Origin: Squalus acanthias
Taxonomy: Eukaryota
Length of the DNA: 64,000 nucleotides
Assembly: GCA_030390025.1 (NCBI GenBank)
Contig: JASTWF010000070.1
Location: 1,054,001 to 1,118,000 of the forward strand
Direction: 5' to 3'
The translations under genes were made by a program, and so were the position numbers. Of this stretch, positions 1,960 through 47,000 are shown in pieces (positions within the stretch are counted from its first letter, which is position 1; each line of letters starts with the position of its first letter). Below the pieces are notes generated by a model. That model searched no databases, was not told where the DNA came from, and saw only the letters and a program-made list of their open reading frames with translations.

Positions 1960-4900
1960 TCAGAGGGTCGGGACCGCATTAAACGCCAGGTGGGCGTAAA
2001 GAGTCTATGGGAGAAAACAGAAGCATTATCATGGCCCACATCATCATCATTGGAACAGAGGGACAGGAGGAGGCTGTTCAGCCCCTCGAGTCTGTTCCGC
2101 CATTCAGTCAGATCATGGCTGATCTGTATCTTAACTCCATCTACCCGCCTTGGTTGCCTAACCCTTAATCCCCTTACCCAACAAGAATCTATCAAAAATC
2201 ACTCAGTTTTGGAATTTGCAATTGACCCCCATCCTCAACAGCTTTTTTGGGGGAGAGAGTTCCAGATTTCCACCACCCTTTGTGTGAAGAAGTGCTTCCT
2301 GACATCACCCCTGAATGGCCTGCCTCTAATTTTAAGGTTACAACCCCCTTGTTCTGGACCCCCGCCCCCCCCCCCCCGCCACACCAGAGGAAATAGTTTC
2401 TCTCGATCTACCCCATCGAATCTTTAATCATCTTAAACACCACAATTAGATCGCCCCTTAATATTCTATACTTGAGGGAATACAACCTAGTTTGTGCAAC
2501 CTGTCCACACAAATGCATCCTTTCAGCCCCTGTACGACTCGGGTGAACTACCATTCTGCAATTTAAAATATCCAGATCTATATTTTTTTAATCTACGTTC
2601 GCAGTTTTACATAAAAGGTAAAGAGTGCTACCCTGTAGTGCTCATTATGCATTTTTTTATGGAGCCAATTATTATGAATCTTAAACATTGCGTTAAAATC
2701 AGTGCAAGGTATTGACATGTGTTAAGCAAAAACAATTCTTTTCATATCTACCTCCTTGTCTTGTGCACGTGGTCTCGAATCCGTCAATTTCTGATCGTTG
2801 TTCGTGTTGCCTGATATAAAGAGAAACTTAATCTAAGTCTAAATGCACACATTTCACACTGAACGGGCCCACTAACATGTAATGAGCCAATGACACAATA
2901 AATGGATTGATTGGGAGCGCCGTGGAGTTGGAGCGTCTCCCGACAACCGCTACCTGAACGCCGGTTCCTGCAGCTCCTTCCCGCGGCGACAATAACCATC
3001 AGCAGAAGGAGAAGCGCCGCCGCCGAACTCCCGTAAAGCAGTAATCTGCAGCTGGTTTGTAGCAGGGGCTCTGAAGAAAGAAAAAAAACAACCTTTTATT
3101 TAAAAAAAACCCGTAACCCGAGCCTTCTGGTTCTCGCAGAAGGTTCAAGGAGGCCCAACACCACATTCTCAACCACTGGGGATGGACAATCAATGCCAGA
3201 CTTACCACCGTCACCAACATCACGAGAACCAATTAAAAATGTTGCTGGAAATCATTNNNNNNNNNNNNNNNNNNNNNNNNNNNNNNNNNNNNNNNNNNNN
3301 NNNNNNNNNNNNNNNNNNNNNNNNNNNNNNNNNNNNNNNNNNNNNNNNNNNNNNNNNNNNNNNNNNNNNNNNNNNNNNNNNNNNNNNNNNNNNNNNNNNN
3401 NNNNNNNNNNNNNNNNNNNNNNNNNNNNNNNNNNNNNNNNNNNNNNNNNNNNNNNNNNNNNNNNNNNNNNNNNNNNNNNNNNNNNNNNNNNNNNNNNACC
3501 ATGAACCTATCGAAGGGGAGGGCACAGAAGGAGAGTATGAGGCCCTCCATGTTTCTGCCGGCTCTTTGGCAGATGGATCCAAAACTAATCCCATTACCCG
3601 GCTCTCTCTCCATATTCCTGTATCAATCCAAAACAAACTCCAAAACCCACTCTGTCACCTGGAATGCACCACTTCCAACCCTTCGCCAATCCGAGGAATA
3701 CCCATTTACCCTATCTGCTTCTTTCTTGTCTGTCATCTAACTTTCCATCCAGGCTGCCACATCTCCTTCACACCATATGTCTAAATTGTTTCAAAACAGC
3801 CCTGTTGTGCGACATCTTATCAAACGCCTTCTGGAAATCCATACACCTTACATCTACTGCAATCCCTTTACCTATCCAATCGGTCACTTCTACAAAAGCT
3901 CTGTTAAATTTGTTAAACACAACACCACTTTCACAAATTGGTGCTGGTTGTCATTAACTAGCCCAGCCATTTAGAAATGCTCACCACTTTCAGTTCAAAT
4001 TACAGATTTTAAGCGTTTCTCCGCAACTCATCTGGTCTATGGTAGCCCAAGTGACACCTATCTCCTCTCTTAGATGAAACGTTAGGTGAAAACCGTTTCG
4101 GTAGGAAGAATAAGGAGGTCACATACTCCTTGGAAAATAATTGTCTAAACGGAGTAGAGGAGCAGTGGAATCTGGAGGTACAGATACACAAACCACTAAA
4201 AATAGTGACGCAGTTTAATAAGGCCATAAAAAAACAAACCAAGAACTGGGGTTCATCTCTAGAGGGATAGAATTGAAAAGCAGAGAAGTTATGTTAAATT
4301 TCTGTAGAGCCTTGGTTGGAGCAGACCTGGAATACTGTGAACATTTCTGGGCTTTATGTTATAAAGAGGATAGAGAGACAATGGAGAAGATACAAAAAGA
4401 TTTACAAGGATGATACCAGAATTGAGACGTTATGCCTATCAGGAAAGATTGAACAGGCTGGGCTCTTTTCTCGACAAAAGGGAAGACTGTGAGGTGACCT
4501 AATAGAGGACTTTAGATTATGAAAAGGGTTACATAGGATTACATAGGATATACGGCACAGAAACAGCCCATTCGGCCCAACAAGTCCATGCCGGCGTTTA
4601 TGCTCCACTCGAGCCTCCTCCCGTCTTTCCTCAACTAAATCGATCAGCGTAACGCTCTATTCCCTTCTCACTCATATGCTTGTCCAGCCTCCCCTTTAAA
4701 CGTATCTATACTATTCGCTTCAAACACTCCCTGTGGTAGCGAGTTCCACATTCTCGCCACTCTTTGGGTAAAGAAGTTTCTCCTGAATTCTCCTGAATTC
4801 CCTGCTGAATTTCTTGGTGACTATTTTATATTGATGTCCTCTAGTTATGCTCTTCTCCACAAGTGGAAACATTCTCTCTATATCTACTCTGTCAAAACCT

Positions 4901-6965
4901 TTGACAGGGTAGACTTGGAGAAGATGTTTCCACTTGTGGGGGATGAGGGACCAAATAGTCACTATTAAAGCCAATTGGGAATTCAGGATAAACATCTTTA
5001 CCCAAAGAGTGGTGAGAATGTGGAACTCGCTACCACAGGGAGTGTCTGAAGCGAATAGTATAGATACATTTAAGGGGAAGTTAGATAAACACATGAGGGA
5101 GAAACGAATAGATGGATATTGATGGGTTTATAATGAAGTGGGATGGGAGGGCACTCGTGTGGAGCATAAACACCGGCACGGACCTGTTGGGCCGAATGGC
5201 CTGTCTCTGTGCTGTACATACTGTGTAATACAGATACCTACATACAGGCATCGAGAGAGAAAGTGATAAACTAGAAATTGCAGTTATATTTTCCAATTTT
5301 ACCCATGGACAGCTCAGACAGATACCTTCTCTCCCACCATATACGTATGGCCGAGCTAGACAGATGGACTTTATAATTCTGATTGCTCAACACTGCAACA
5401 TTGAGAGAGGTAAATGATTGGGTAATTCGACATGGACACGCAGAAAGGGAGAGACTTTGAATGTATAAAGTGATATTGCTAGCAATTAACTCTTACATCA
5501 GCATGGAAGATATTAGTGAAGGGTCACTGCCACTAATTACCTCTCTCAGATGAGACACTTTCACTGATCAGATCCCCAGTGGAGTTGATTGGAACGGCGC
5601 AAGTACAAACAGCACCGCTGCTCCAAGTTTCAGCCGAGACGCTGATGTGACTCCTGACAGTGTACGTCCCGTCCGTGTCTATTGTCCCGGAATCGCTCCG
5701 TCCCTCGGTAACCTGTCCGGAAACATTCCAGCGAATGGGAAGGGAATCGGGAGACAGGCTTTTCACCAAACACATCAATGAGACACTTTCCAGCGAGGGA
5801 ATTTCATCCGGCGGCGGAGCTAAGAGAAAGATTTCCGGAGACCCTGGGGAGTTTGGGGGGGTTAAGATACCATTAATATTCTACGTAAATTCGTCGTTAT
5901 TTATGATGAAATGAGTAAAACATCGCAATTCTTACCTGCAATGAGCAATGTCGAGCCGTTTCCGAATATCAATGGCTTTTCGCTAGAGTTCTTAGCTGCG
6001 CAGTAATACACCCCCGAATCATTTCTCTGGACATCTTTCACAATCAGAGAGTAAATATTGGATTCGTTGTTAACTTGTCCGGAAAATCTTCCTTCAGGAG
6101 AGTTTTGATTCCACACGGTGTAAACTAGCTGTAGATGCTCGCGGTGCTGCCCCTTATACCAGTGCACACATACTGCGAACCAACCCGTGTGACAATCGAC
6201 CTTAAAGGTACTTCCAAAAGAGAGAGTCTGAACCGGCGGATTCTGGGCAAACGCTGCCTGAGAGACAATAACTGGGAGAAGAACATATTCACAAAAGGGT
6301 CTGTTACACGGCAGAAATAAACACTCTTCCCTATTAAGAAACGGGTACAGCGGTAAACTGTGAGAAGGATCATCCCATCAATAATTACCATGGATCCTAT
6401 TATCTAAATAGGTCAAATGCTGGGGGTTAAAATTGTGTCTATAACAGGAGAAAGAATGAAAGGAAGCAGGGAAGGAAGAAAGAAAGAACGAAAGAAAGAC
6501 AAAAAGAAAGATCTTTACAGCCAATGAAGTATTTTTTTAAGTGTAGTCACTGTTGTAATGTAGGAAACGCAGCAGCCAAATTGCGCACAACAAATTCCCA
6601 CAAACAGCAATATGATAATGACCAGATCATCTGTGATATTGATTTTGGGATATTATATTGGCCCCAGGATACCAGACAGATCTCCCCAGCTCTCCTTCCA
6701 ATAGTGGCCGTGGGATCTTTTACCTCCACCTGAGAGAGCAGACGGGGCATCCGATAGATGGAAAATATTGACATTTGGTCTAATTTCATTCGCCTGAGAT
6801 AATCCAGTCCTTCAACAGGACACTAATATTACAGAATACAGCGCGAAATCTTTTACTTGGCGGACTAGCTCAATGATATAGCGCCGGAATTCCGCCATGT
6901 ATTAGAAGCACATAAGACTGACCTGGAAAGAGATGGAACAGCGCGCAGGGAGTTAAGAAGCTCAT
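1960..6965 (-). CDS. Gene A: non-rearranging VJ-C1-TM receptor with cytoplasmic tyrosine motif, 6 exons, 300 aa, apparently intact
   Basis: Exons 6965-6923 (leader MSFLTPCALFHLFP), 6271-5936 (VJ: DC..HWYK..DSGVYYC..FGNGSTL), 5843-5541 (C1), 3070-2954 (Cys + TM: QTSCRLLLYGSSAAALLLLMVIVAAG), 2810-2752, 2004-1960 (TLYAHLAFNAVPTL*). All introns GT-AG with compatible phases; 903 nt. An assembly gap (3257-3497) lies in the C-TM intron. Confidence 0.85.
5541..5843 (-). CDS. Gene A Ig C1-set exon
   Basis: 303-nt phase 1-1 exon FLLAPP..SLMCLV..IRWNVSG..DGTYTVRSHISV..W..VCTCAV. Confidence 0.9.
5936..6271 (-). CDS. Gene A germline-joined VJ Ig V-set exon
   Basis: 336-nt phase 1-1 exon with B-strand Cys, C-strand Trp, DSGVYYC and J-like FGNGSTL in one exon; no RSS after YYC. 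Confidence 0.92.
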
Positions 6966-7019
6966 TGTCGACGACCGAGACACTTGCTGTGAGCTACACA
7001 CTGAACACTTTGCTGGGAT

Positions 7020-7175
7020 ATCTTTGCGCTGGGCCCGGCTCGCAAGAGATGTGAAAGACACAGCTGCGGAAATTGCGTGCTTGCGTTTTAAAAATAGCGG
7101 GCCTGGAAAATACAGCGTAATGTCAAGGCTCGCTGCGGGTTTCCTGTTGACACATTAAACGCCCACGCACATGTC
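7020..7175 (-). promoter_or_regulatory. Conserved proximal promoter module of gene A (ETS/RUNX/NFAT-like motifs)
   Basis: Ordered motifs GATGTGAAA, TGCGGAAAT, CTGGAAAA, TGCGGGTTTCCTGTT recur upstream of B (14245-14410), D (39890-40040) and A' (58010-58160). Confidence 0.55.
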
Positions 7176-9147
7176 TGCCTGCAAAGGGCAATGCATTCCA
7201 GTTCGTGTTAAACAGGCTTGAAAGGCGGCGAGAAGTGCAGGCTGATTAAACTGTGAACTGAAGGCTGGCAGTGCTGAATTGCACACACCGGATTGGTTGT
7301 GTCATTCGTGTGGGCGCGAGGACATGATCCTATTTCGAATGTTTCTTTTTATTGGTCCCGAACCCATTCATTCATACACCCTTACTTGTACCAACAAATA
7401 TAGACCAGATTCAAGAAAGGTGCAATCATCTGTTATTTTACCAGCCGTGGCTCAGTGGGCAGCACGCTCGCCTCCGAGTCAGAAGGTCGTGGGTTCAGAG
7501 TTCCACTCCAGAGACTTGAGCACAATATTTATACCTCAGTCAACTTCAGTAAAAGAGATGTCTTGATCATTATCACATTGCTATTTGTGGGAGCTTGCTG
7601 TGCAAAAAATTGCCGGCGTATTCACTGCATTACAACAGTGACGACATTTCAAAAGTACCTCATTGGCTAAAAAGCGCTTTGGGATCTCCTGAGGTGGTGA
7701 AAGGCGCTATAGAACTGCAAGTTATTCTTTACCTCTTTTCCCAGGTTTTGCTCCAACGTGTTATTAACCAAACGTCGCCGCCGGGTGAGTATCATTTATG
7801 GGCACTGAGTGCGATTTTGGCCGCGCTCCTGTTCTTATTTACACACTCAGCCTCCTGGTTCCTGGATTCTGCGCCCCTCTCATCGCCGCTGCACCATAAG
7901 GCGAAATTCACATCTTGATTGCATTCAATGTCCCATGAAAGAATTTAAAAAAAGATGGCTTTAAGAAATGTCCTGATCTGCACATTCCCGAGGTTACCTG
8001 GATAATTCCTTAAATTAAGAAATGTGGATTGTAGAAGCTTTTTTTTGGGGGGGGGAGAGTTCCAGATTTCCACCACCATTTGTGTTAAGAAGTGCTTCCT
8101 GACATCACCCCTGAGCGGCCTGGCTCTAAATTTAATTTGTTACCCCCTTGTTCTGGACTCCCCCCCACCAGAGAAAATATTTGCTCTCTCTCCACCCTAT
8201 CAACTCCTTGAAGCATCTTAAATTCATCAATTAAATCACCCCTTAATCTTCGATATTGAAGTGGATTCAAGTCTGGTCTATGCAAACTGTCCTCATAATT
8301 GAAACGTTTTAGATCCTGTATAATTATCTGGTTAATTCTCATATGAGCTGAAGTTGGAGGCCTGGTCGCATTGTACACTGGAAATTGCTCCACCTCTGAG
8401 TTGCAAGTATATTTCCCTACTGTAACTAAATGGAACTATCTGTGCGTTGGATAACATTTACCAAAAGATATTTTACAACATTTCCATTGCTACAACAAGT
8501 AAAGGAAGACGTGCATTTATATAGCACCGCACAGGACCTCGGGGCTCCCGAAGCGCTTTACAACCAATGAAGTACTTTTGAAGTGTAGTCACTGTTGCAA
8601 TGTTGGGAGACGCGGCCGCCAATTTGCGCACAGCAAGATCCGACAAACACACACTTCAGCAAAAAGTGCTTCATTGGCAGTAAAGCGCTTTGGTACGTCC
8701 TGATGTCGTGAAAGGCGCTGTAGAAATGCAATTCTCTATTCTAACAGTTAAGCAGAACATGAATCTTTCGATAATTGTCCCTGTAGCAACTGTTATTATC
8801 TGTTTTTTTTTAATCCGTTTCTCTGCAGTGGTGTTTCTCGATATGATAAAGAACACATTCTAAATCTGCATGAGATTATAAAGAAAAGATAATTGCTTTA
8901 TTAAAACGGTAATAAAGTTGTTTAAAAATCATTAAGCATATCTACAGACAGAGTACAATCACACTGGGAGCTAAGCGATAATTACCGCCCAGTAATTTGA
9001 AGAGTCACTGAACACAGGCTGTAATTGATGATGCGGTGAGTGAAGCTTTATATCTAAAGGTCTTCCATTCTCATGACGATGTGTAATGCGCACCAAACGC
9101 CAGGCGCGCGTACAGAATCTGTGAGGGAGCAACATGAGAATACAATT

Positions 9148-10105
9148 CACAGAATCATAGAATCATAGAATGGTTACAGCACGGAAGAAGGCCATTCAGC
9201 CAGGCGAACCCGTGCCGACTCTCAGCTAGTCCCACTCCCCTGCCCTTTTCCCGTAGCCCTGCAATTAGTTTTCCTTCGGGTACTTATCCAACTCCCTTTT
9301 GAATTATAAGATTGAGTCTGCCTCCACCACCCTCTCAGGCAGCGCATTCCAGATCCGAACCACTCGCTGCGTAAAAAAGTTTATTCTTACGTCGCCTTTG
9401 GTTCTTTTGCCAATCACCTTAAATCTGTGTCCTCTGGTTCTCGACCCTTCTGCCAATGGGATCGGTTTCCCTCTATCTACTCTGTCCGGACCACTCATGA
9501 TTTTGAACACCTCTATCAAATCTCCTCTCAAACTTCTCTGCTCCAAGGAGAACAACCCCAGCTTCTCCAGTCCATACACCTAACTGAAGTCCTTCATTCC
9601 TGGAACCATTCTCCTAAATCTTTTCTGCACCATCTCTGAGGCCTTCACATCCTTCCTAAAGTGTGGGGCCTAGAATTGGACACAGTTCTCCAGTTGTGGC
9701 CGAACCAGTGTTTTCTACAATTTCATCATAATGTCCACACTTTTTTACACTATACCTCGATTTATGAAGCCCAGGAGCCTTTTTAACTGCTTTCTCAACA
9801 CGCCCTGCCACCTTCAACGATTTGTGCACATTTACCCCAAGGTTTCTCTGTCCCTGCACCCACTTTAGGATGGTACCCTTTAGTTTATATGTCCTCTCCT
9901 CATTCTTTCTACCAAAATCTTTCATTTCGCACTTTTCTGCGTTAAATTTCACCTGCCACGTGTCCGCCCATTCCACCAGCCTGTTTATCTCCTCTTGAAG
10001 TCTATCACTCTCCTCCTCACTGTTCACTATACTTCCAAGTTTTGTATCATTTGCAAATTTTGAAATTGTGCCTTGTACACCCACTTCCAAGTCATTAATA
10101 TATGT
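9148..10105 (-). mobile_element. CR1 LINE 3' fragment (duplicate at 61110-62065)
   Basis: YINDL..SKFANDTKL and RT C-terminal ORFs. Confidence 0.85.
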
Positions 10106-12329
10106 CTTCACCCTCCTGCTCAACTTATTCTGAGTCAGTATAAGTTTGAATCAGAATGGGAACAACAGGTCTCCCGCCTGAGTGTCTTTAGATTAATTTA
10201 AGAACAGGAAACACGAATTTAAGAAAAGTTTATGCAGTTCCCCTTTTGAATATAATTTCAATTTTACTTATTACAGTGTAAGAATTAATTCAGAAAAATC
10301 AGTAATGGGCACCACCCTCCCTATCTCTCTAACATCCTCCAGCCCTACAACCCTCCGAGATCTCCGCGCTCCTCCAGTTCTGGCCTCTTGCGCATCGACC
10401 GATTTTAATCACTCCACTATTGGCGGCCTAGCCTTTAGCTGCCTGGGCCCTAAGCTCTAGAATTCCCTCTTGGCCTCTCGCTCCTCCTTTAAGACGCTCG
10501 TTAAAACCGACGTCTTTGACCAACCTTTTGGTCACCAGTCCTAATATCTCTTTATGTGGCTCGCTGTCACATATTCTCTAATTAACGCTCCTGTGAATCG
10601 CCTTGGGACATTAAAGGCGCTGTATAGATACAAGTTGTTCTAAGCAATTCATTGCATGCGAATCGCTTTGGGTCGTTTCCGAGAGAGGCACAACGCGCTG
10701 TATTAATGCGAATCTCTCCTTAAAGTAACCACCAACGGACATGTCCATGAATATCAGTGAAACCCCTGATACCAGTACAGAATCTTACAGCACAGAAGGG
10801 GGGCATTCGGCCCGTCCTGCCTGTGCCGGCTCGTTGAAAACGCTACCCAATTAATCCCACTCCTCCCGCTCTCTAATGAAAATAACATCACTGAGATTCT
10901 TCACACCTACCTCGTTTTCTGGGTTCTTGATTCTTTAATCTGGAACTTGGTCAGTTGTGACTACACTCTCTGATTTAAGGAGATGATTAGAGTTAAATGT
11001 GCAAACTTACACACCAAAAGGACCCTTTCAGCAAACGGCAAAAGACTCAACTTAGGTTTAGCTTCGGACAGGCAGTACCTGGTTTGCGGGTCTTGCAGCG
11101 CCGTCTCGCCGCGACAATGACCATCCTCAGCACAAGAAGGGGCGCCACCATACGGGCGTAAAACGCGATGCGGCAGGTCGTGCTCCGGAGGGACACTGAA
11201 CAACAAAGAATTAACTCTAATGAAATGAACAAAACACAAACTAATAGCTTACATTCAGTGACATTCTGAAACCTCGCCTACTGGGATTTGAAGACGTTTT
11301 TCCCAGAATCGTTAAACACAAGATGATGTCCTGTTCCCGATATCACTGCAAGTTGTTCCTGTTGTTGAGATCGCTGCGCTCCTCCAATTCTGGCCTCTTG
11401 CACATCCCCCGATTTCCATTTTCCCTCCATTGGCGGCCGTGCCTTCAGCTGCCTGGGCCCCGAGCCCTGGAATTCCCTCCCTAAACCTCTCCGCCTCTCT
11501 CTCCTCCTTCAAGACGCTCCTTAAAACCTCCCTCTTTTAACAAGCTTTTGGTCACCTGTCCTAATATCTCCTTATGTGGCTCGGTGACAAATTGTGTCTG
11601 ATAATCGCTCCTGTGAAGCGCCTTGGGACGTTTTACTACGTTAAATGCGCTGTATAAATGCAGGTTCTTGTTGTTGAATTATGTGTAGGCTTAAAGGTTG
11701 TTAAGTGCTCACTCGCATATTTATCCATTTTTAAAATGCACACTTACTTTAGTAGTAGACTTTATGTAGAATTTAGACAGAGACATGGAGGGGGCACAAA
11801 AGGGATTCAGCAAGTTGATATTAGGGGTGAAAGACCTTAATTAGGAAGAGACGCGGTTGGGGATACTGTTAGAACAGAGAAGGTTAAGAGGAAATCTAAT
11901 AGAGGTGTTCAATTTTACCAGGGATTTGGTAAAGTGGATAAGGAAAGACATTTTCACTGGTCCGTGAGTCGGCAAGAGCATAAATGTAAGATCATTACAA
12001 AAAGGAATGAAGATGTTAGCAGTCGTTAATGCAGTCGTTTGGTGGGTCAGAGAAGGTGATATTAGGAATAGTCGTGGGAGCAATTTTGAAGAAGGATGTC
12101 ATTTAATATTTGAAAAAGAAAAAAAAATATGAAGAATGGGTAGGGCAATGGGACTAAAAGGAACCACCTTCAGAGAGAGGGTACAGGGCGATGGGTGAAA
12201 AGGAAAAGGCTGAGCGATTGAGACCAAGATGAGAACTCTTTCAGACAGCAATCACAGGCACGATGCGTCGAATGACCCTCCTCCTGCACTGGAAAAGTCT
12301 TAATCTGGATAGTGGCATGTCGTCAAAAC

Positions 12330-12845
12330 CTAAGGTAGGATATACTTGCCAGAGAGGAAGTGCAACGAAGGTTCACCAGACTGGTTCCTTGGATGGGGGG
12401 ATTGTCCTATGAGGAGAGATTGAGTGGACTAGGCCTATATTCTCTCGAGTTTAGATGAATGAGAGGTGATCTCATTGAAACATACAAAATTCTTACAGGA
12501 TGGAAGCAGGGAGGATGTTTCCCCTGGCTGGGGAGTCTAGAACCAGGGGTCACAGTCTCAGAATAAGGAGTCGGCCATTTATGACTGAGATGAGGAGAAA
12601 TTTCTTCACTCAGAGGGTGATGAATCGTTGGAATTTTCTGCCCCAGAGGGCTGTGGAGGCTCAGTCGTTGAGTATATTCAAGACAGAGATCGCTAGATTT
12701 TTGGATATTAAGGGAATCAATGGACATGGGGATAGTGCAGGAAAGTGGAGATGAGGTAGAAGATCAGCCATGATCTTATTGAATGGCGGAGCAGGCTCGA
12801 ATGACCAAATGCCCAACTCCTGCTCCTATTTCTTATGTTCTTATG
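12330..12845 (+). mobile_element. CR1 LINE 3' fragment
   Basis: GRMFPLAGESRTRGHSLRI..; TTCTTATG tail. Confidence 0.85.
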
Positions 12846-13267
12846 AAGCAGCGGAGATGTGCAGCGACTGATGGCGAGATAGTCAGGCTAGAAACATGGA
12901 GAAATAAATGCAGCAAATGGCAAGCCAAGGAAAAGAGATGTTAAAGTTTCCGCCGAGACGCTGATGTGGCTTCTCACGGTGTAGCTCCCTTCCGGGTCCA
13001 CCGTCCCGGAATCGCTGCGTCCCTCGGTAACCCGGCCCGAAACATTTCAAAGGACGGGAAGGGAACCGGGAGACGTGCCTCTCACCAAACACATCTAGGG
13101 CACCCGTTCCCTCCAGGAAATGTCATTTGGCGGTGGAGTTAAGAGAAATATAACCAGGGGACCCGCTAAATTCGGAAAATAAAACGGAGGCCGAAATAAC
13201 AGTTAAACAAGACGCGTTTTAATTGATGTATAAATGCACAATTGAGTGAAATAGTTGTGAAGATTAC

Positions 13268-13606
13268 CTGTAATCACTTGCTTGGAGACATTTCCGAATA
13301 TTAGGGGCTTGTTAGTGTGGCTTGGAGTGGCACAGTAATACAGCCCAGAATCATTTCTCCGGACATTTGCAATGACCAGAATATAATTACCCGATTTATT
13401 ACATATCTCGCCGGAAAATCTTCCCTCTGGCCTTACGAATTGGCCCATTTTGTAAACGAGCTTTAATTCCTCTCGGTGCCACTGTCTGTACCAGGACACA
13501 ACGAGACGCGCCATCCTCCCCGTCTGGCATTGCAGTTTAACAAGGCTCCCGACAGCAAGCGTCTGAACCGGCGTAGACTGGAACAAGACCGACTGAGACA
13601 CAACAA
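13268..13606 (-). CDS. Gene B VJ Ig V-set exon (open frame)
   Basis: LQCQTG..SWYRQ..GRFSG..DSGLYYCAT..LIFGNVSK; AG/GT boundaries, 339 nt. Confidence 0.85.
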
Positions 13607-14244
13607 CTGAGAAGCAGACAAAAAATATTAACAACAAGTTGTGGGCCCGAAGCTAACCTCTGGCGGGCCTACCTTGATACCCGACAAATCCAAAAAATCC
13701 ATCTTAAGGCGCATGTCGGCTTCAAAGTTGCCGTGTTGTTATTGATTGAAATTTCCACTTTGCTGAAAATCGTAGTTGCTTTCTTAAAGTTAAAGTTGAA
13801 TGTGAAATTACATATAGAATCTTACAGCACAGAAAGAGGCCATTCGTCCCATCGTTCCTGTGCAGGCTCTTTGAAAAAGCTCTCCAATTAGTCCTATTCC
13901 CCCCTGCTCTTTCCTCATGGCCCTGCACCTTTTTTTTCCTTTTCAAGAATTTATCCAATTCCCTTTTGAAAGTTACTATTCAATCTGCTTCCACCGCCCT
14001 TTCAGGCAGCGCATTCCAGATCACTAAAACTCACTGTGTAATCCACTTCTCATTATTGATTCTGTCAAAACCCTTCTCCTTATTGACTCTCTCCAAAACT
14101 TTCCCCGCTCTCTTAAAACATCGAAGGATATCTCACCTTGGAAGAAATGGCACAGCGTGCAGAGGCAGAAGAAGCTCATTGCCGGTGACCCAGTCGGTTA
14201 AACTCTGAGCCACGGACCGGCAGCTCGCTGAGAAATGGCTCTCG

Positions 14245-14410
14245 GTAGATCGGTGCGAGGGAGGTGTGAAATGCAGAGCGGATTGCGGAAATCATGCGCT
14301 GTGTTTATTAATAAATGTACGATTGGACTGGAAAGCGGTGCCGAGGCAGAAAGCTTTCTGTGGGTTTCCTGTTTATACATGTCAAGTGCTCACACACAGG
14401 CACACACACG
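14245..14410 (-). promoter_or_regulatory. Gene B promoter module
   Basis: GGTGTGAAA, TGCGGAAAT, CTGGAAAG, TGTGGGTTTCCTGTTT in the same order as at gene A. Confidence 0.5.
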
Positions 14411-14504
14411 CAGACAGCATCTGTTTTGCAAAAAGCCCCTTGTTTCAACTCATATTAGTTAGACCACATTTGCAGCACTGTGCACAGTTCTGCTCTCCGT
14501 ATTA

Positions 14505-20195: not shown

Positions 20196-20199
20196 AGAG

Positions 20200-21285: not shown

Positions 21286-21324
21286 CTGAAGATTAAGTTT
21301 TGGAAACCAAACAGCCACGTGACG

Positions 21325-23335: not shown

Positions 23336-23664
23336 TCAGTCTGAACACGAGGAGGCGCTGATGGTCTTGAGAAGAGGCGAGCTCAGGGAGCCGTGGCTGA
23401 CGCTGCAGGAATAGCTGGAGCCCTTGTTCTAGGCGGCGGGGGGGACTCTCAAGTAACTGCTCAGGCTGTAGGTTTGATCGCTGTCCGGGGACACGGCGCC
23501 TGTCGTCACCCCGCTGTCTGTCTCTTGGCCATCCACGCTCCAGCGGAGCCGCACCAAGCCCGGCTTGAAGCGATTCACCAGGCAGGACAGAGTGGCCGAT
23601 CCCGAGCCGATTTCTTCCGAGGAGGGAAGGAGGAGAAGAACCGAGAGGCTTCGATCCTCGTTGC
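23336..23664 (-). pseudogene. Immunoglobulin light chain constant exon, shark type I (NS5/sigma-cart)-like, with premature stop
   Basis: GNEDRSLSVLLLPSSEEIGSGSATLSCLVNRFKPG..DSDQTYSLSSYLRVPPAA*NKGSSYSCSVSHGSLSSPLLKTISASSCSD*; conserved Trp codon is TAG (23431-23429); C-terminal interchain Cys; AG acceptor at 23666-23665; AATAAA at 23023-23018. Isotype assigned from recalled similarity to the horned shark type I light chain. Confidence 0.85.
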
Positions 23665-28382: not shown

Positions 28383-28414
28383 ATATTGGGCAATGCATAA
28401 GATCAGCGTGTCTA

Positions 28415-35750: not shown

Positions 35751-37638
35751 ATGGTATTGAGATGGAGGATCAGCCATGATCCTATTGAATGGCAGAGCAG
35801 GCTCGAGGGGCCGAATGGCCTACTACTGCTCCTATTTTTCTATGTTCCTATGTTTCTATGGCCAATAGCCAAGTCAGCGAGTCTATTGACACCTCTGTGT
35901 CAGATCTACCTCACCACCACCTCTCTCGACCCATCCACTGTCTCTAAATTGTCACACTGCTTGTCCAACATCCAGCACTGGATGAGCAGAAATTTACACC
36001 AACTAAATATTGGGAAGACCGAAGCCACTGTCTTTGGTCCCCGGCACAAATTCCGCTTCGTTGCCATGGACTCCATCCCTCTCCCTGGCAGAACCAGGCT
36101 GTTCACAAGCTTGTTGTCCTATCTGACCCTGAGATGATCTTCGGAACACATAGCTGCACCATAACTAAGACTGCCTATTTCCACCTCCATAACATCGCCC
36201 ATCCCGTCCTTGGCTCAGCTCATCTGCGGCTGAAACCCTCATCCGTGCCTTTGTGACCTCTAGACTTGAATATTCCAAAGCACTTCTGGCTGGGCTCCCA
36301 CATTTCAGCCTACTTAAACTTGAGGTCATCCGAAACTCGGCTGCCCGTGTCCTAATTCTAACCAATACCTGTTCAATCATCACCCCTGTGCTCGCTGAAC
36401 TACATTGGCTCCCGTTTAGGCAACACCTCGATTTTAAATTTCTCATCCTTGTTTTCAAATTCCTCCACGGCCTCACTATCCCTATCTCTGTAATTTCCTC
36501 CAGTCCCACAATCCTCCGAGATATCTGTGCTCCTCTAATTCTGGCGTATTGGATATCCCCAATTATAATCTCTCAACTATTGCCGGCTGTGCTTTCAGCT
36601 ACCAGTGCCCTAAGCTCTGGAAATGCCTCCCTGAACCTCTCCAGCTCCCGAGCTCTCTCTCCTGCTCTAACACGCTCCTTAAAACCTACCTCTGTGACCA
36701 AGCTTTTGGTTATCTGCCCAAATATATCGTTAGTTCTTACTTGGCTTGGAGTAATTTTTTAGACTGATCCTTGGGATGAGAGGGTTGTCCTATGATGAGA
36801 GATTGAGCAGACCGGGCCTATACTCTTTGGAGTTTAGAAGAATGAGAGGTGATCTCATTGAAACATACAAGATTCAAGAGGGGGATAGCCAGGGTAGATG
36901 CTAAGAGGTTGTTTCCCCTGGCTAGAGTGTCTAGAACTAGGGGTCATAGTCTCAGGATAAGGGGTAGGCCATTTAAGACTGAGATGGGGAGGAATTTCTT
37001 CACTCAGAGGGTTGTGAATCTTTGGAATTCTCTGCCCCAGAGGGCTGTGGATGCTCAGTCTTTGAGTATATTCAAGGCTGAGATCGATAGATTTTTGGAC
37101 TCTAGGGGAATCACAGGATATGGAGAAGGGGCGGGAAAGTGGAGTTGATGTCGATGATCAGCCATGATCTTATTGAATGGTGGAGCAGGCTCGATGGGCC
37201 GTGTGGCCTACTGCTGCTCTTATTTCTTATGTTCTTATGTTCTTATGAGGCCCTGTCTGCCCTCTCAGGTTGACGTACATGATGCAACGGCAATATATCA
37301 AGGAAACCCAGGGGAGTTAGCCGTAGAGTCCTGTCCAATATTTATCCCTCAATCAACATCACTAAAAAACAGATGATCTGGTCATTATCACATTGGTCTT
37401 TGTGGGAGCTTGCTGTTTGCAAATTGACTTGCTGCGTTTCCTACATTACAACAGTGACTACACTTCAGAAAGTACTTCATTGGCTCTAAAGCGCTTTCGG
37501 ACGTCCGGTGGTGGTGAAAGGCGCTATAGAAATGCAAATCTGTCTGTTTTCTATCAACTTTAATCATCTTAAGCTCCTTAGTTTGAGATAGTTTAGGAGT
37601 TTGTTGAGAGTCTCTGTGGCTTTACATTGCAAGTTAAA

Positions 37639-39830
37639 TTACAGTTTCCACCTGCTGTGGATTCTTTCGTAAATCTGATGAATCCATTCGTGTTCTCGCC
37701 TCTTTCCCGCCTTCTTTTTTGATGAAATTTTCAATGCAGCAAAATCCGCCGATGTGTCGAGTCTGGTCACCCGGGCCGCCCCGAGCCTAGAAAACAGATT
37801 AAAACAAGGAAATATATAGATATTTGAATCGCGTTTACATGAACTTACTCGTTCTCCATAAGACACGGATCTGGCTTACTGTTAATAGGCAACAGTAGAC
37901 GGATATTAATCATAAATAATCACAAGTTAGAAAACAAAAAGATAATTTTTAAAATGAAAGTGTCCATTCAGACAGCTGCACTGTTTGATTGGTTGACACG
38001 ACGAACCAGTCCAATCAGCCGTTTCGTCATACGCCGTCTGCCAGAAAAAGTACTTCTAGGGTCAAGGGGCATAGTTCCGAACAATGGCCCCTGGTCATTG
38101 TTTTAAGAGAATGTAAACCGGTGCTATGGCGACCCTGCACGCAAACGAAGAGTCTGCGTGTGCCTGGTACCTCAATGAAAGAGCTGTTTGCCAGTTAGGA
38201 GGGCCAAGCTCGCTGCTTAGTGGCGTAGACAGATAGCAACAGTTTCTCGTGAAAGCCCACAGAAACATACAGATACAAAAACACATACACACACTTATAT
38301 ACACACAAACACATACACACATAAACGTACGCCTAGAAAGACAAGGGCAGCAGGTCCATGGAAACACCTCCAAGTTCCCCTCCAAGTCACACACCACCCT
38401 GACTTGGAAATATATCGACCGTTCCTTCATCGTTGCTGGGTCAAAATCCTGGAACTCCCTTGCTAACAGCGCTGTGGGAGCACCTTCACCACACCGGACT
38501 GCAGCGGTTCAATAAGGCGGCTCACCACCACCTTCACAAGGGTAACTAGGGATGGGCAATAAATGCCGGTCTTGCCAGCGACGCCCACATCCCATGAATA
38601 AAGAGAAATATACACAGACACACAGATACAAACATATACACACAGACATACTCACACATACATACACACATATACACCTCGACACATGTACACACACACA
38701 GACGCACACACGCACAAATAAAAATACAGACTCACCCACGTATAAACACAGACATACACATTGACAGAAACGCAATCTTTAGTCTTGTATATCGACTTAG
38801 CATGCAAGCCATTTAGCAACATAGTTTGAGTTATCTTCACAATTATCCAGGAATGTCGTCGCATTTCTGCATCTATATAATAATTCCTGTGGCTAAAGTA
38901 TTAAAAACAATCACCACACCGGGGTCGGCTGGGGGTACCTTGACTCCCTGTAGAAATAATAAAAACGCTGTAAAATCTGGGTATCTGAAATACAAACAAA
39001 AACTGCTGGAATGACACTGCGGATGAGTGTCTGTCGAAGGCATTAAACCAAAGACATTAACTGATCATTTCTATCAGTAGATGAATGTGCGGTTGATGGA
39101 TTCGCTCTGTTTCCAATCGGAGCGATAATGGGGATTGGATGGAAATTAAGATGACGTAGACCGCGGTCTGCTCTCTGTTCACGGGGCGAAACATCCATTT
39201 GAAGCTAAAACTGTACGCGAACAAGCATTAATTCTGGTAAATCCTTGGCCACGTGCCATAAATATTGAGAATAGAATTGTGGGATGGTCTTTGAATCAAT
39301 CTTAAAAGAATGTGAAAAATATAAAAAATATACCATTGAAGGCGGAGTTCGGGTTGACTAGCTTTGACACATGCTTGAAAACAACCACAGTGAGTGCTGG
39401 AGGCGAATAGCATAGATGCAATTAGGGGGAAGCTAGTTAACACATGAGGGAGAAAGGAATAGAAGGTTATGTTAATGGGGTGAGATGAAGAGGGGAGGAA
39501 GGAGGCTCGTGTGGAGAATGAACACCGGCATGGACCGGTTGGGTCGAATGGAATGTGTCTCTGCTGCACATTCTGTGTAATTCTATGGAAGGTGCCTATG
39601 GAACCTATGTCAAGGGTTTCCATCTTCAGAAGAATGAAGCGGTATGGAAACTGGGAGCTAAGAGAAAGTTACATCAATTTTAATTTTAGAATGAATTTCT
39701 GGTAGAACTGGTTTTGAAATGAGCAGGCCATTTAGTACCTCACTGAATTTCTGAAGAGTGATGCGGAAATGCGTGACCTCAACTGACAAAGAAGCGAGCC
39801 TGAGCTTGAAGCAGAGAGGGGGCAGCTCCT
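37639..39830 (-). pseudogene. Relic gene D of the same receptor family (no V, C or TM exon detected)
   Basis: 43-nt leader-position exon 39830-39788 with ATG>AGG and the same GTCAGT donor as gene A, below an A-type promoter; 39160-39370 is homologous to gene C intron/exon 44790-45000; 37786-37639 is homologous to gene C terminal exon (shared TCATCAAAAAAGAAGGCGGG). Confidence 0.65.
38260..38765. repeat. Degenerate (CA)n tracts flanking a LINE 3' fragment; similar (TG)n tracts at 46466-46625 and 47295-47500
   Basis: Seen directly in sequence. Confidence 0.85.
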
Positions 39831-39889
39831 TGGCAGCAAAGAGGCGCTTTGACTGTGACCGCGCCTGTTGCTCTGAATACCACAGATCA

Positions 39890-40040
39890 CGCTGCTCGGG
39901 CCGCCTGCGAAGAGATGTGCAAAGTGCAGCGAGTTGCGGAAACGGCTGGCCGAGATTCTGACTTGAGCTGGAAAATAATGGCCGAGCTAGAAGCTCTCTG
40001 TGGTTTTCCTGTTTCTGCAGAATAGCCGCCCACACACAGA
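39890..40040 (-). promoter_or_regulatory. A-type promoter module upstream of relic D
   Basis: GAGATGTGCAAA, TGCGGAAAC, CTGGAAAAT, TGTGGTTTTCCTGTTT. Confidence 0.5.
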
Positions 40041-41009
40041 AATTTCAAACAGTGAGGCACCATGTTCAACCGCACACAGAAGACAGTTGTCACCTAGGGA
40101 AGATTCAACTGAATTGAGAGCAGACTCGAGTACATTGACCACATTTACAGCCTCCCCTTCCAAGTGACACCGCGTCCTGTTTATCTGCATTGCCCAGTGT
40201 TTGCACAGGAGTAATTGATAATATTCTGAGCCTCAATATCATTCATTAAATATCCACTCCCTCCACCACCGGCGCACCGTGGCTGCAGTGTGTACCATCG
40301 ACAAGATGCACTGCAGCAACTCGCCAAGGCTTCTCCGACAGCACCTCCCAAACCCGCGACCTCCAACACCTAGAAGGATAAGGATAGCAGGCGCATAGGA
40401 ACACCACCACCTTCAATTTCCCCGCTCCAAGTCACACACACAATCTTGACTTGGACAAATATCGGCCGTTCCTTCATCGTCGCTGGGTCAAAATGCTGGA
40501 ACTCCCAACCTAACAGCACTGTGGGAGCACTTTCACCCCACGGGACTGCAGCGGTTCACGTTGGAAGTCCACCACCACATTCTCAAGGGCAACTAGGGAT
40601 GGGCAATAAATGCCGGCCTTGCCAGCGCCGCCGACATCCCGTGAATGAATTAAATACAATTCTCAACTTTAACTGCCAAAATTAAAATTCAGAACAATGA
40701 CAAATGCACACATCCATACCATACCCTTTCTGTGACCCTCTCCGAACTATAATCAAAAGCTCATTATAGCCACTCTGCATTTTGCATTAGACTGACCGCT
40801 ATGACGCACAGACGCTGCCCACATGTAAAATGCACGAGGCGTGGGATCCAACAAGATACTGCATCTAAAGGCTTAGCGCGGAATAGTTGCCACCGTATCT
40901 GAAGGAGGTGTAACCAACTGTGTGTGCGCTCGGGTCACTCGGCGCACACTCCGAATGCAGAATGTTGAGAGCGAGCACGGGAATAACTGAGCGCGGTTCC
41001 GGCCTCAAG

Positions 41010-44000
41010 ATGTTCAAGGCAGCTTTTTCCCTGATCCTCATTGTCCACGTGATCTGGCCTGACGGTGAGTGAGACACGGTTCCAATCTCCTAAATGGAAT
41101 CAGCCAATAACTGGAACCAATGGACTGTCTTTACTAAGTTGAAAATGTGACCGAGCTAACAACTTTTGGGCTGATATTTTCTCCCCCTCCCTATCACTGT
41201 AACCTGCTGCAGCCCTGCAACCCTCCGAGATCTCGGCGCTCCTCCAATGTTGCCCTCTTGCGCATCCCCCGATTTCCATCGCTCCACCATTGGCGGCCGT
41301 GCCTTCAGCTGCCTGGGCCCCAAGCTCTGGAATTCCCTCCCCAACCCTCTCCGCCTCTCTCTCCTCCTTTAAGACGTTCCTTAGCACTTAGCTCTTTGAC
41401 CAAGCTTTTGGTCACCAGTCCTTATATCTCTTTCTGTGGCTCGGTGTCAAATTTGTGTAAAGCGCCTGGGGTCCTTTAATTACGTTAAAGGCGCTGTATC
41501 AAAGAAAGTTGTGATTGAAATGTTGGTTTACTTTCTGGTCCTTCTATAAGGCGAAGTAAAGGCAAACTAGAGAACGGATATAACCAGCAATAACTGAAGG
41601 CAATAATGATGCTGTTCTTAAATTACAGGCGAGGTGTTTCAACGCGGCTTCTTTCTATCGCTCAATAATCAGTTCTAATGTCACAATAATCCCTCTAGTT
41701 GCAGAATCCCATCCCATCCTGTCACGGAGCCGCGTCACAGTGACAGCCGGAGTCGGCCAGTCGGTTGAATTGGAATGTCACCAGATTTCTAAAGTGTATT
41801 TGGTGAACAGCTATTTCTGGTACAAGCAGCGTGTGGGTGAAGCCCCGAGACTAATCGATATCCCATCCTGTGATCAGACCGATTGCAAGTTTACTTCTAA
41901 AAAAGGACACACCAAATATATACTGATCCTGGAAATCCGCAATGTGCAGGTGGCTGACACCGGCTCCTATTACTGTGCTGCTTGGGATAGCAATGCACCG
42001 CTCGGGAATGGATCCACACTGCTGGTTGGAGGTAAGAGCGAAGCCAAATTGAATTCAGATCATGCACAGCAATATCATTCGCTGTAAGCTAAGAGTTAAC
42101 TGTGTCCCAATCCCTGTCCAGACAGTTCCACACCCAAGACGGCTGTGCTGTTGTTTGCCCCGCCGGGGGAGCCGTATTTAAGGGACACCGTCCCCTTGGT
42201 GTGTTTGGTCACTGGCGTCTCCTCGAACCAGATTGCTCTTTACTGGAACGTTACCGGACAGTTGACCGAGGGACGCAGCGATTCCGGTACACTGGACCCG
42301 GACGTCACCTACAGCATCAGAAGCCATGTGATGGTCTCGAGGGAAGCCTGGAGAAGAGGCGGGGTCTGCACCTGTATTGTTGAGCTGCGTTCCAAGGACA
42401 AATCTTGGGCCAAGAGCGTGTCGCGCCCCAAAACAGTGGCAGGTGAGTCGGTGATCTGTATAGCGAAGGTCAGTATTCAGCTTCAGCGTCAGTTGGAGTA
42501 GTTCACTCGCTCCTAAGCGCCTGAAGTCTGTAAATAAAGCAACACCACGGGATGAGCATGAATATCTATATATCAGGAGAAATAGTGCGTTCAGTCTGTT
42601 ATAAAATACATTGAAATAAACTACGGTTACCCTCCGTCCCAGGTCCAGTAAATACTTTCTCCGCTCTTGGCTGACTTTAGATTTCTGCGTGTCATTTTAG
42701 AATCATAGAATGATACAGTCAGAAGGAGGCCATTCGGCCCATCGTGCCTGTGCCGGCTCTTTGAAAGAGCTCTCCAATTAATCCCACTCCGTCCCTGCTC
42801 TTTCTCCACAGCCCTTGCAAAATTTTCCCCTTCAATTATTTATCCGATTCCCTTTTGAAAGTTATTAGTGAATCACCTTCCACCGCCCTTTCAGGCAGCG
42901 CATCCTGGAATGGATTGGAGTGAACGCGCTTTATGACCTGAAGCTAATCAACAGATGCGGTGAAATAGTTGGCTGAACGTATCTGCTGGTATCAGACGCT
43001 CGCTCATTTCCTCCCGTTTATTTTCTCGTTCCTATTTTAAAGACCCGAACCCCCCTTATCAATCCCCACATTCCCCATGAAATATATTTTCGTTTAATCG
43101 GGTTATGAAGCTTCACTGAAATTGGGTAATCGTTCCAGTTTACCACTCATAAAACATGGGGGGTGTATGAGTATAAATCTTTGAAGGTTTCAGGACAAGT
43201 CGAGAAGACTGTAAAACACATATGGGATCCTTGGTTTTATTAATAGAGGAATAGAGTACAGAAGCAAGGAAGTTATGCTAAACCTTTATAAAACACTGGT
43301 TGGGCCACAGCTGGAGTATTGTGTCCAATCCTGGGCACCACACTTTAGGAAGGTTGTCAAATCTAAATTCTAACAGAACTAGACAGACTAGATGCAGGAA
43401 GGATGTTCCCGATGGCGGGGGAGTCCAGAACCAGGGGTCACAGTCTAAGGGATAAGCCATTTAGGACTGAGATGAGGAGGAATTTCTTCACCCAGAGAGT
43501 GGCGAACCTGTGGAATTCTCTACCACAGAAGGCACTTGAATGCAATTCATTAAATATATTCAAGAAGGAGTTCGATATATTTCTTAAGGCTGAAGAGATC
43601 AAGGGATATGAGGAGAAAGCAGGGACATGATACTGAATTTGGATGATCAGCCATGATCTCATTAAATAACGGAACAGGCTCGAGGGGCCGAATGGCCGAC
43701 TCCTGCTCCTATCTTCTAGGTTTCTAAGTCCTTGGAGAGTGTGCAGAGAAGATTTACCAGAATGGTACCAGGGATGAGGGACTTCAGTTGTGTGGATAGA
43801 CTGGAGAAGCTGGGATTGTTCTCCAAAGAGCAGAGACGGTGAAGAGGAAATTTAACAGCGGTTTCAATCATGAATCATGAAGGGTTCTGATAGAATAAAT
43901 AATGAAAAACTGTTCCCATTGGCAGAAGGGTCGCCAACCAGAGGACACAGATTTAAGGTGATTGGCAAAAGTAACAGAGGCGAGATGAGGAGACATTTTT

Positions 44001-47000
44001 TTACGCAACCAGTTGTTGTGATCTGGAATGTGGTGCCTGAAAGTGCGGTGGAAGCAGATTCAATAGCAACTTTCAAAAGGGAATTGGAAAAATAATTGAA
44101 GGGATAACATTAACAGGGCAATGGGGAAAGAGAAGGGGAGTGGGACTAATCGGATAGCTCCACAAACGAGCCGGCACAGCCATGATGGGTTGAATGGCCT
44201 CCTTCTGAGCTGTAAACATTCTATGATTCCGTTTTCAAATAGGATGTTTTGATTGTGCATTATTAAAATTATGGGGCAATACTGAGGGTGCCGTCTGTCA
44301 ATTTGTCTTAACCACCAAACCAGTGCAATTTATTCCATTATGAGCTTTCACTTGTCCAATATGCGTCGCATTGGCTGGTTTGTCCTTTCACACCCCGGGT
44401 TTGATGCTCCTTCATTGTAACTGGTTCACGTTTCTCATCAGAGAATCCCAGAAAGTAATGAGTTGACCCAGCAGCATTTTCTAAGTGTTTATCTCTGTAG
44501 GGTGGTGCATTCTGACCTTTCCCATTGCAATAAAGATTATGCTGATCCTGGTTCTGGAATTGATCTTCATTTCCATTTGGAATCATAAAAGCCGCAGATC
44601 AGGTGAGAATTTACATTTACCAGGAATAATTTAATAAATGTTTGTTTAATGCGATTCCCTTCACGGAGGTTTAAATACTAATTACAGTTAATTGTTTCAG
44701 AAGAACGAGTCAAGAGACCCCACAAGGAAAGGTGAGTAACTGAACCATTTACAATGTTTTTCAGTAACAGTCTCACTGTATTTAACACTGTGTCAAAACC
44801 AGTCAACCCCTACTCCAGTTTCAAAATTTTCCACGTTCTTTTAAGTCTGTTCAAAGTCCATTCCACAATTCTGTTCTTGATATTCATGGCACGTGACGAA
44901 GGATTTAAAAGAAGTAATGCTTGTTTCATATTTTTGTTTGCATACAGTTTTAGTTTAAGAGAGAGAAGGATAAGAGCCGGAAGAAATGAGCGACACTCGG
45001 GTGAGTTGCATTGAAATGTTGGTGGAGATAGAACATCAATTGCAGGATATTTCAAAGATCAATAAGTTCATTTCCCGCCATCAAAATGACTTGCCATCGT
45101 GCTCCTGACTGCCGGACCTACAGAAAGATTAATTATTGGTTATTAATGCTGACAATTATGTATCAGATGGACAATGGACGCCAGACACCAGGGGTGGATC
45201 GCCCATGTCTATCCATTGGCTTATTGGTTGGTCATTTGCATAGTGGGGGAACATTGGCTTATTGCGGTACCCTTAGCGTATTGGTGGTTCATTGGCTTAT
45301 TCAGATATCATTGGCATATTGGTGGACCATTGGCATAGTAGTGGACAGTTAATGTATTGGGGTACCTTTGGCATATGGGTGTACCATTGGCATATTGTTG
45401 GACCATTGGCATTTTGGAGCACCATTGGCTTATTGGTGAACCATTGGTGTAGTGGGGGACAGTTGGCATATTGAGGTGCCATTGCGTATTGGTGGACCAT
45501 TGGCATATTGGATGATCATTGGTTGATTGGGGTACCTTTGGCGTATTGGTGGACAATTGGCATCTTGGTGGAAAATTGGCGTATTGTGGTAGCATTGGCA
45601 TATTGGTGGACCTTTGGCATATTAGGGGGCCATTGGCGCATGGTGCCTCGATAATTAATTATAGATTAGCCAGAATTGAGAATGTTTAAATTCATATTCT
45701 TAACTGTTGATACACAGGTGACACCCATCAAATGGAGTTGAAGCGGACACATCCGAGTGCAATACATGTAAGTAAGTTTATTGAACCTGTTGCAATAATA
45801 TACAGGAACTTGGTGATTTCTGGGATGGGTGCAATGCGCCACATGCGGGATATTTCATGCGGTTGGCATTGAGCAGGTCATAGTCCAGATCATCTTAATT
45901 TGCAGCGAATCCCACTCGTTGCTCCAACTGGAAATAGAACATATCCCGCAGCCCTCTTCCCATCTGATAATAGAAAGGATAGGTTAATGTTCCGGGCACA
46001 ATGCCTTCCCCAGACTTTACTGGTGATTTTCAGCAGTTTCGGTTTCAATTTCAGATTTCCAGCTTTTTGCTATTTTCTATTATTTTTATCTCCACATTGA
46101 GTCCATGTCAACTCCCCTAACAATCCTCCCCCACCCCCCGCCTCCCATCCGTCAGAGATACTGTTTTTAATATATTAGCCACAGTTATTATTGTGAAGAT
46201 TCAGAAATAAGACGACACCCAGAATAGTTTCACAGATAAGTCAAAATATGTTTCTATGGTAAGTAGTCGAAGAAGNNNNNNNNNNNNNNNNNNNNNNNNN
46301 NNNNNNNNNNNNNNNNNNNNNNNNNNNNNNNNNNNNNNNNNNNNNNNNNNNNNNNNNNNNNNNNNNNNNNNNNNNNNNNNNNNNNNNNNNNNNNNNNNNN
46401 NNNNNNNNNNNNNNNNNNNNNNNNNNNNNNNNNNNNNNNNNNNNNNNNNNNNNNNNNNNNNNNNNTGAGTGTGTGTGTGTGTGCCTGTGAGTGTGAGTGA
46501 GTTTGTGAGTGCGAGTGACTGTGAGTGTGTGTGTGTGCTTTTGTGTGTGCGTGTGAGTGTAAGTGAATGTCTGAGAAGGTGAGTGTCTGAGAGGGTGAGT
46601 GTGTGAGTATGTGCATGTGTGTGATTGTCAGCCGTGGCTCAAGGGGTAGCACTCTCGCCCCTGAGTCAGAAGGTCATGGGTTCAAGTCGTACTCCCGAGA
46701 CTTGAGCCCATAATCCAGGCTGACACTCACAGTGCAGTACTGAGGGAGCGCTGCACTGCAGGAGCGGCAGTACTGCGGGAGCACTGCACTGTCGGAGGTG
46801 CAGTACTGAGGGAGCGCCTCACTGTCGTAGGGGCAGTACTGAGGGAGCTCTGCACTGTCGGAGGGGCGGTACTGAGGGAGCTCTGCACTGTCGGAGGTGC
46901 AGTACTGAGTGAGCACCGCACTGTCGGAGGGGCAGTACTGAGGGAGAGCCGCACTTTCGGAGGGGCCATCTTTCAGATAAGACGTTAAATCTACGCCACG

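Follow-up and report, generated by a model that had tools for sequence, protein, structure and literature searches.

Paired V-C1 receptor genes of two subtypes in Squalus acanthias, candidates for a germline-encoded disulfide-linked heterodimer

A 64-kb window of the Squalus acanthias genome (contig JASTWF010000070.1, positions 1,054,001 to 1,118,000) was found to carry a cluster of V-C1-transmembrane (TM) receptor genes of two subtypes, considered here as the possible halves of one receptor (Table 1). A first-pass annotation of the same DNA had distinguished the subtypes by their leader, V and tail exons, and the exon models of genes A (subtype 1) and C (subtype 2) bear this out: A has a 43-nt leader exon and two tail exons, C a 55-nt leader exon and four tail exons. 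The same annotation counted four chains, of which A and C are intact, whereas A' (frameshift, lost Cys, dead donor) and B (two stops) turned out to be pseudogenes. The layout of gene A is that of its shark homologs, and the V domain of C is 75% identical to those of the best shark homologs. Every gene also carries a C1-set exon, absent from the earlier description; Pfam V-set and C1-set models match both A and C (C1-set E-values 1.6e-11 and 1.3e-9, respectively). According to the exon models, V and J are joined in a single germline exon in each gene, with one C1 exon per gene. A scan of the window for recombination signals revealed none near the receptor V exons (one weak match, at 26352, lies far off), and on these two grounds a rearranging locus was rejected. 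The tails of A and C end in tyrosine motifs (TLYAHL and ILYASL, respectively), which are kept in the homologs and are, judged from their sequence, of the immunoreceptor tyrosine-based inhibitory or switch motif (ITIM/ITSM) type.

Table 1. Receptor genes and other features of the 64-kb window (positions counted from the first letter of the window)
Feature	Position	Strand	Description
Gene A (subtype 1)	1960..6965	minus	Intact, 299 aa, 6 exons; open model, GT-AG at all introns; leader 6923-6965, VJ 5936-6271, C1 5541-5843, stalk-Cys/TM 2954-3070, tail exons 2752-2810 and 1960-2004 (TLYAHL)
Gene B (subtype 1b)	9074..14179	minus	Pseudogene; leader 14137-14179, VJ 13268-13606 without GxG; C1 starts 13165, holds TAG and TGA, cut near 12944; TM 11079-11195; last exon from 9118 (ILYARL)
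Ig light-chain-like constant exon	23345..23663	minus	In-frame stop (by translation)
Degenerate J- and V-like remnants	to about 25570	minus	Upstream of the light-chain-like constant exon
Relic D, 3' remnant	37640..37900	minus	Degenerate copy of the last tail exon of subtype 2, 72-75% identical to C-type last exons
Relic D	39795..40080	minus	Promoter of subtype 1 with a dead leader that has lost its start codon and donor; head-to-head with C
Gene C (subtype 2)	41010..48088	plus	Intact, 343 aa, 8 exons; open model, GT-AG at all introns; leader 41010-41064, VJ 41699-42031, C1 42122-42442, Cys/TM 44501-44602, tail exons 44701-44731, 44948-45000, 45718-45767 and 48002-48088 (ILYASL)
Gene A' (subtype 1)	52578..57953	minus	Pseudogene; tail-to-tail partner of C; VJ 56909-57247; C1 56514-56817 with +1 frameshift and Cys-to-Tyr; TM 53558-53674, dead donor
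B' V exon	63485..64000	unset	B copy, split and partly inverted; pseudogene

The window contains a duplication with a spacing of about 51 kb (1-14000 versus 50619-64000, 91-95% identical), which spans A/A' and B/B'. The C1 exons of the two subtypes share about 72-78% DNA identity in their middles (5615-5731 and 42243-42359), yet the V exons cannot be aligned; this is a hint of gene conversion or of shared constraint. Extra cysteines were also seen. The F strand of C1 in A and C reads Cys-x-Cys, a feature shared by almost every elasmobranch member of either subtype, and the subtype-2 V (41699-42031) has two additional Cys in the region of the second complementarity-determining region (CDR2), present in most sharks, which by their placement likely form an internal disulfide.

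A Cys just outside the membrane had been read in all four TM exons, and this was confirmed (QTSCR in A, STTCR in B, GWCIL in C, QTSCS in A'), the TM exon of A' lying beyond the end coordinate given in the annotation. Beyond the window, the stalk Cys is present in 47 of 47 TM exons among the 49 paralog models of this genome, in all 59 TM-bearing elasmobranch homologs (81 examined) and in 16 of the 17 TM-bearing homologs from bony vertebrates (25 examined). If the receptors were monomeric and SIRP-like, with the Cys unpaired, acylated or in a bond with an unrelated protein, it would be understandable that in subtype 2 this residue sits right where the hydrophobic stretch begins, that the TM exon is wholly missing from some models and that by features SIRP-like clusters come next in likeness (0.95-0.96). 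Taking into account, however, that the Cys lies on the outer side of the membrane in both subtypes and across all lineages examined, and that the interface residues of the subtypes differ in a complementary manner (see below), we regard such monomers as improbable. Five database isoforms, representing both subtypes (P0001, P0006, P0020, P0021 and P0050), skip the TM exon and thus the Cys; these predicted isoforms are possibly soluble forms.

The likeness to T-cell receptors (TCRs) that was suggested earlier holds for the shape of the ectodomain. A mediocre monomer model (predicted local distance difference test score, pLDDT, 66; predicted TM-score 0.45) shows domains of the type found in antigen-binding fragments of antibodies (Fabs) and in TCRs, and the solved folds nearest to it are those of Fab chains and TCR beta chains. 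For signalling the likeness does not hold. The chains of TCRs need basic TM residues and have short tails, whereas charged TM cores are rare here (3 of 59 elasmobranch homologs) and both tails carry the inhibitory-type tyrosine motif; because of these two features the family is TCR-like in shape and not in signalling. The V-C1-Cys-TM layout, the nearest folds and a TM Lys in C of the window and in three paralogs would all suit a true invariant TCR equivalent that activates through CD3 or a similar adaptor, but with such scarcity of charged TM residues and long YxxL tails in both subtypes this explanation is very hard to sustain.

Many sharks and rays have both subtypes, automatically named, for instance, 'kappa light chain-like', and a profile search retrieved V-C1-TM relatives from sturgeon, paddlefish, lungfish, coelacanth, caecilian, newt, Xenopus, turtles, lizards and alligator. 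In several sharks, a ray, the sturgeon and the caecilian the two subtypes apparently lie on one contig. In a 46-row tree built with no outgroup, shark subtype 2 groups with the bony C-like set at 97/89, and subtype 1 stands beside another bony set across a 99/94 branch (unrooted). A clade consisting only of shark A and C sequences was rejected by the approximately unbiased test (p-AU 0.0024; 24 rows, quick tree, no outgroup). By these trees, both subtypes arose before the split between sharks and bony fishes. A third bony V-C1-TM group, from lungfish, coelacanth and sturgeon, has GxG and includes no shark rows (P0131, P0165, P0170, P0176, P0182, P0188, P0209 and P0220).

The residues expected at a contact between V domains were compared with those of antibodies, position numbers being fixed by alignment to Fab light chains. 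According to PMC4968113, the conserved contacts between heavy (H) and light (L) variable domains are those of L-Gln38 with H-Gln39, of H-Leu45 with a pocket made by L-Phe98, L-Tyr87 and L-Pro44, of L-Pro44 on H-Trp103 and of L-Ala43 on H-Tyr91. Shark subtype-1 homologs have Leu, Ile or Met at position 44/45 in 25 of 26 cases, all 26 have the canonical J-like GxG, and in most of them an aromatic residue precedes it. Subtype-2 homologs have Pro44 in 43 of the 47 that could be parsed (49 given), mostly preceded by Ala, and the interface residues WYKQ..GEAP noted earlier in C are indeed present. This Leu/Pro split between the subtypes holds from sharks to reptiles. The GxG bulge, on which the earlier proposal of pairing had also drawn, can be read in A, A' and C, but it is not a trait of subtype 2: it was found in 12 of 24 subtype-2 paralogs of this genome, in 2 of 10 bony C-like proteins and in only 1 of 47 parsed C-type homologs, and on the last count it was rejected as an argument for pairing of that subtype.

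In bony vertebrates the two sets differ also in charge. Position 38 is Glu in 10 of 11 parsed A-like proteins (12 given) and Arg or Lys in 9 of 10 parsed C-like ones (11 given), seven of the rows counted having been grouped by eye and not by the tree; lungfish has Gln in both. According to PMC5297516, engineered Fabs use opposite charges at the position-38 contact to guide pairing and to curb light-chain homodimers. The bony charge pair, as read from the aligned residues, points to a contact between the subtypes.

These residues bear on the question whether the chains form mainly disulfide-linked homodimers, or a mixture of homo- and heterodimers, in which case the gene pairing described below would reflect co-duplication and shared regulation only. 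The stalk Cys would serve homodimers equally well, each chain has a tail motif of its own, A and C hardly differ in the D/E strands of C1 (the mid-exon identity given above), which suits symmetric packing, and UrIg and UrIg2 are disulfide-linked homodimers according to PMC12227049. C-type records also far outnumber A-type records in rays. On the other hand, Leu and Pro are kept apart by subtype from sharks to reptiles, and homodimers would bring like charges together at position 38, both of the bony proteins and of those subtype-1 paralogs that have Arg38 (15 of 24 parsed). We judge a mainly homodimeric receptor to be unlikely, if by no means far-fetched.

A search of the genome with the C1 exon of C as query yielded at least 24 subtype-2 and at least 24 subtype-1 matches; 80 stretches were fetched, and 49 models were built from them, 24 of C, 19 of A and six of B type. 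On one contig (C3553) 21 C genes were found, 18 of them with a full convergent subtype-1 partner 13-23 kb away, two with a relic partner and one at the contig end. The partner distances correlate across the 18 pairs (Mantel r 0.66, p 0.0001), therefore the pair is the unit of duplication. Both genes were intact in eight of 21 units and both broken in nine, and the remaining four were discordant; this table leaves out a near-identical duplicate unit on contig C24, genes with no partner found and extra B copies. In the scoring, one C gene was called broken because a V core Cys and the tail Tyr are lost, and for three C genes the fetched stretch did not reach the last exon. The intact or broken state thus agreed in 17 of 21 units (Fisher p 0.009 with relatedness ignored, p 0.13 with near-copies collapsed by eye), which is suggestive of co-decay of the partners and is a further point against homodimers.

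Some of the fetched loci deserve separate mention. The unit on the chromosome-scale contig C24 is near-identical to one on C3553, and L023 and L024 hold the sole open B-type V-C1-TM models found. Copies of the light-chain-like constant exon occur in nine other fetched loci, interleaved with receptor units (loci named: L045, L048-L054, L056 and L057); the copies in L045, L050, L053, L054 and L057 are open, whereas that of the window has a stop.

The CDR-like loops hold most of the amino-acid variation among paralogs. Positive selection was considered and not adopted: in pairwise, non-independent comparisons of 11 intact C genes, the ratio of nonsynonymous to synonymous differences (pN/pS) was 2.79 for the CDRs, 0.77 for the framework and 1.34 for C1, where pS was low; nine A genes gave 0.92 for the CDRs versus 0.57 for the framework. 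Such a concentration of variation is as expected for a ligand-driven family.

A subtype-1 promoter lying head-to-head about 1 kb from C, here called relic D, had been put forward as a sign of pairing. The promoter is real: the local alignment score of D is 183 with A and 174 with B, for which shuffled sequences average 81-82 (sd 8), and 91 with C, the same as its shuffle mean. It is present upstream of all 20 other C genes examined (L061-L080), its 3' remnant at 19 of the 20. It is, however, dead. The start codon is lacking in all 17 copies whose leader was examined, and D was rejected as a living partner since neither a V nor a C1 exon was found in the 20 upstream stretches or in the window. 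As an argument for pairing the head-to-head arrangement fails, the living-type partner of C genes being the tail-to-tail gene. As to whether the D promoter is kept by selection, its divergence (0.040) is about that of two C introns (0.041 and 0.044) and below that of the flanks (0.057-0.095). D joins the subtype-1 promoter to subtype-2 TM and tail remnants, the TM remnant being seen in L071, L072, L077 and L079. In its make-up it looks like an old deletion that fused two genes and was fixed before the amplification.

Expression was read from three runs presumed, though not recorded, to be RNA. Low-depth contig pieces on the exons of C stop at exon borders. In one run (X3) a contig crosses the 92-base V-C1 intron of a subtype-1 gene, with 29 letters on the short side and 90-95% likeness, which identifies it as a paralog; this run has pieces of both subtypes, including a B-like one. 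The zero cover of the V-C1 stretch of A in two of the three runs carries no evidential weight. These data are weak evidence for spliced transcripts of the family and, being bulk data, are silent on single cells.

Because the interface is split in a heavy/light-like manner, the bony position-38 residues are oppositely charged, the subtypes predate the shark/bony-fish split and the units duplicated 1:1, we favour, with moderate confidence, a Fab-shaped, disulfide-linked inhibitory heterodimer of subtype 1 and subtype 2. The two-chain germline receptor proposed in the first-pass annotation gains from the interface residues, the charge pair and the 1:1 gene pairs, from the invariant Cys and, weakly, from complex prediction. 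In such a heterodimer the heavy/beta-like part would fall to subtype 1, with its Leu45, Tyr91, Phe at 103 and GxG, and the light/alpha-like part to subtype 2, with its Gln38, Ala43-Pro44 and Tyr87. V would pack on V and C1 on C1, the membrane-proximal Cys of the two chains would bond, and the paired CDR-like loops would bind a putative ligand. Each chain would contribute one tyrosine motif, and the two would recruit SHP-type phosphatases and thereby inhibit; combinations of paralogs could provide a fixed repertoire without RAG.

Several points weigh against this heterodimer. The V face of subtype 2 is non-canonical, with Leu or another aliphatic residue for Phe98 as well as the near-absence of GxG in its homologs, and UrIg2, in which the bulge is likewise missing, has a mode of pairing other than that of antibody variable domains (PMC12227049). 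The C-like proteins of sturgeon and paddlefish are without Pro44, and the A-like rows of sturgeon and lizard are long-branched. The bony charge pair may go back to one or two events. The annotation had proposed to look for conserved pairing of the subtypes in other sharks; both subtypes are found there. In sharks position 38 is not complementary (subtype 1: Gln 16, Arg 7, His 2, Tyr 1, n=26; subtype 2: Gln in 44 of 47). Complex prediction, an earlier suggestion, gave a score of 0.51 for the catshark orthologs (P0022 residues 19-240 with P0011 residues 1-214) against 0.01 for the best of three controls, with a contact agreement of at least 77% and a partner pLDDT of at least 69; the runs were made with orthologs, without alignments and for the subtype-1:subtype-2 pair only. 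The score falls in the weak band (up to 0.60), which holds 5 of 78 solved complexes and all four passing mismatches of 180, and the predicted complex may reflect general Fab/TCR likeness. The discordant units, 4 of 21, include both that touch the window; therefore A and C each lack a genomic partner of their own, and any A:C pairing would be between units. Moreover, A has Gly38 and an extra V Cys, and C has Lys and Glu in its TM, so both window genes may be drifting.

A wider claim, which we put forward tentatively and hold to be possible at best, is that a non-rearranging V-C1 heterodimer with Fab-like asymmetry and a disulfide existed before the shark/bony-fish split, that it is the living two-chain sister of the receptor invaded by RAG, and that in this genome it has become a combinatorial inhibitory repertoire with diversifying CDR-like loops. 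New in this work are the heavy/light-like interface split, the bony-vertebrate charge pair and the paired amplification. If the heterodimer is real, sharks, rays and bony vertebrates have a germline V-C1 pairing with Fab-like asymmetry, two chains can pair without any rearrangement, and an old design bearing on the origin of antibodies and T-cell receptors has been preserved. A large family of probable inhibitory receptors, mis-annotated as 'kappa light chain-like', is in addition brought into shark immunity.

Among known systems, UrIg and UrIg2 are likewise elasmobranch, with a non-rearranging VJ and C1 domains, and form disulfide-linked dimers. UrIg, which is secreted from the liver, has three C1 domains and UrIg2 nine or more, both being homodimers; the accessible text of PMC12227049, from which these data are taken, makes no mention of ITIM, PRARP or VJC1. 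Identity with them was rejected since each shark receptor gene has a single C1 exon, and a two-chain receptor, if confirmed, would be unlike the homodimeric UrIg. A literature search, with most subscription papers and supplements outside its reach, found no paper on these shark genes.

TCR alpha-beta and Fab chains share with the shark chains the VJ-C1 arrangement, the stalk Cys and the heavy-/light-like interface, and they are the nearest sequences and folds in the PDB. The shark genes differ from them by a joined VJ exon, the lack of recombination signals, mostly uncharged TMs, inhibitory tails and a subtype 2 without GxG. Identity with TCRs was rejected, as there is neither rearrangement nor a CD3-type TM; the connecting-peptide Cys is present. 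SIRPs are similar in their VJ-like V and C1 domains and ITIM tail. They have, however, two C1 domains and are not known as two-subtype heterodimers.

Closest are PRARP (reportedly Fu et al. 2019, J Immunol 202:1992) and the tetrapod VJC1 (reportedly Ohta et al. 2019, J Immunol 203:1882), said to be a membrane-bound gene pair with a non-rearranging VJ, V-C1 outside birds, an ITIM/ITSM tail and disulfide-linked homo- or heterodimers. The chicken PRARP pair is said to form monomers, homodimers and heterodimers; dimer formation as such is probably already known for this pair. The span of the shark-gene relatives, from sturgeon and lungfish to amphibians and reptiles, is presumably the range of PRARP. 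Of the relatives in Xenopus, turtles, lizards and alligator none is labelled PRARP or VJC1, and no bird protein is among the named ones. PRARP is counted among joined-VJ genes in PMC11599192, and VJ-C1 genes were 'identified in tetrapods' according to PMC10751288, whose accessible part does not list elasmobranchs. The shark genes resemble PRARP/VJC1 in the germline VJ exon, the V-C1-TM layout, the ITIM/ITSM-type tail and the two linked gene types; they differ in being elasmobranch and in having been amplified more than 20 times as paired units among light-chain-like exons. Judged by these features, the shark family is probably the elasmobranch branch of PRARP/VJC1.

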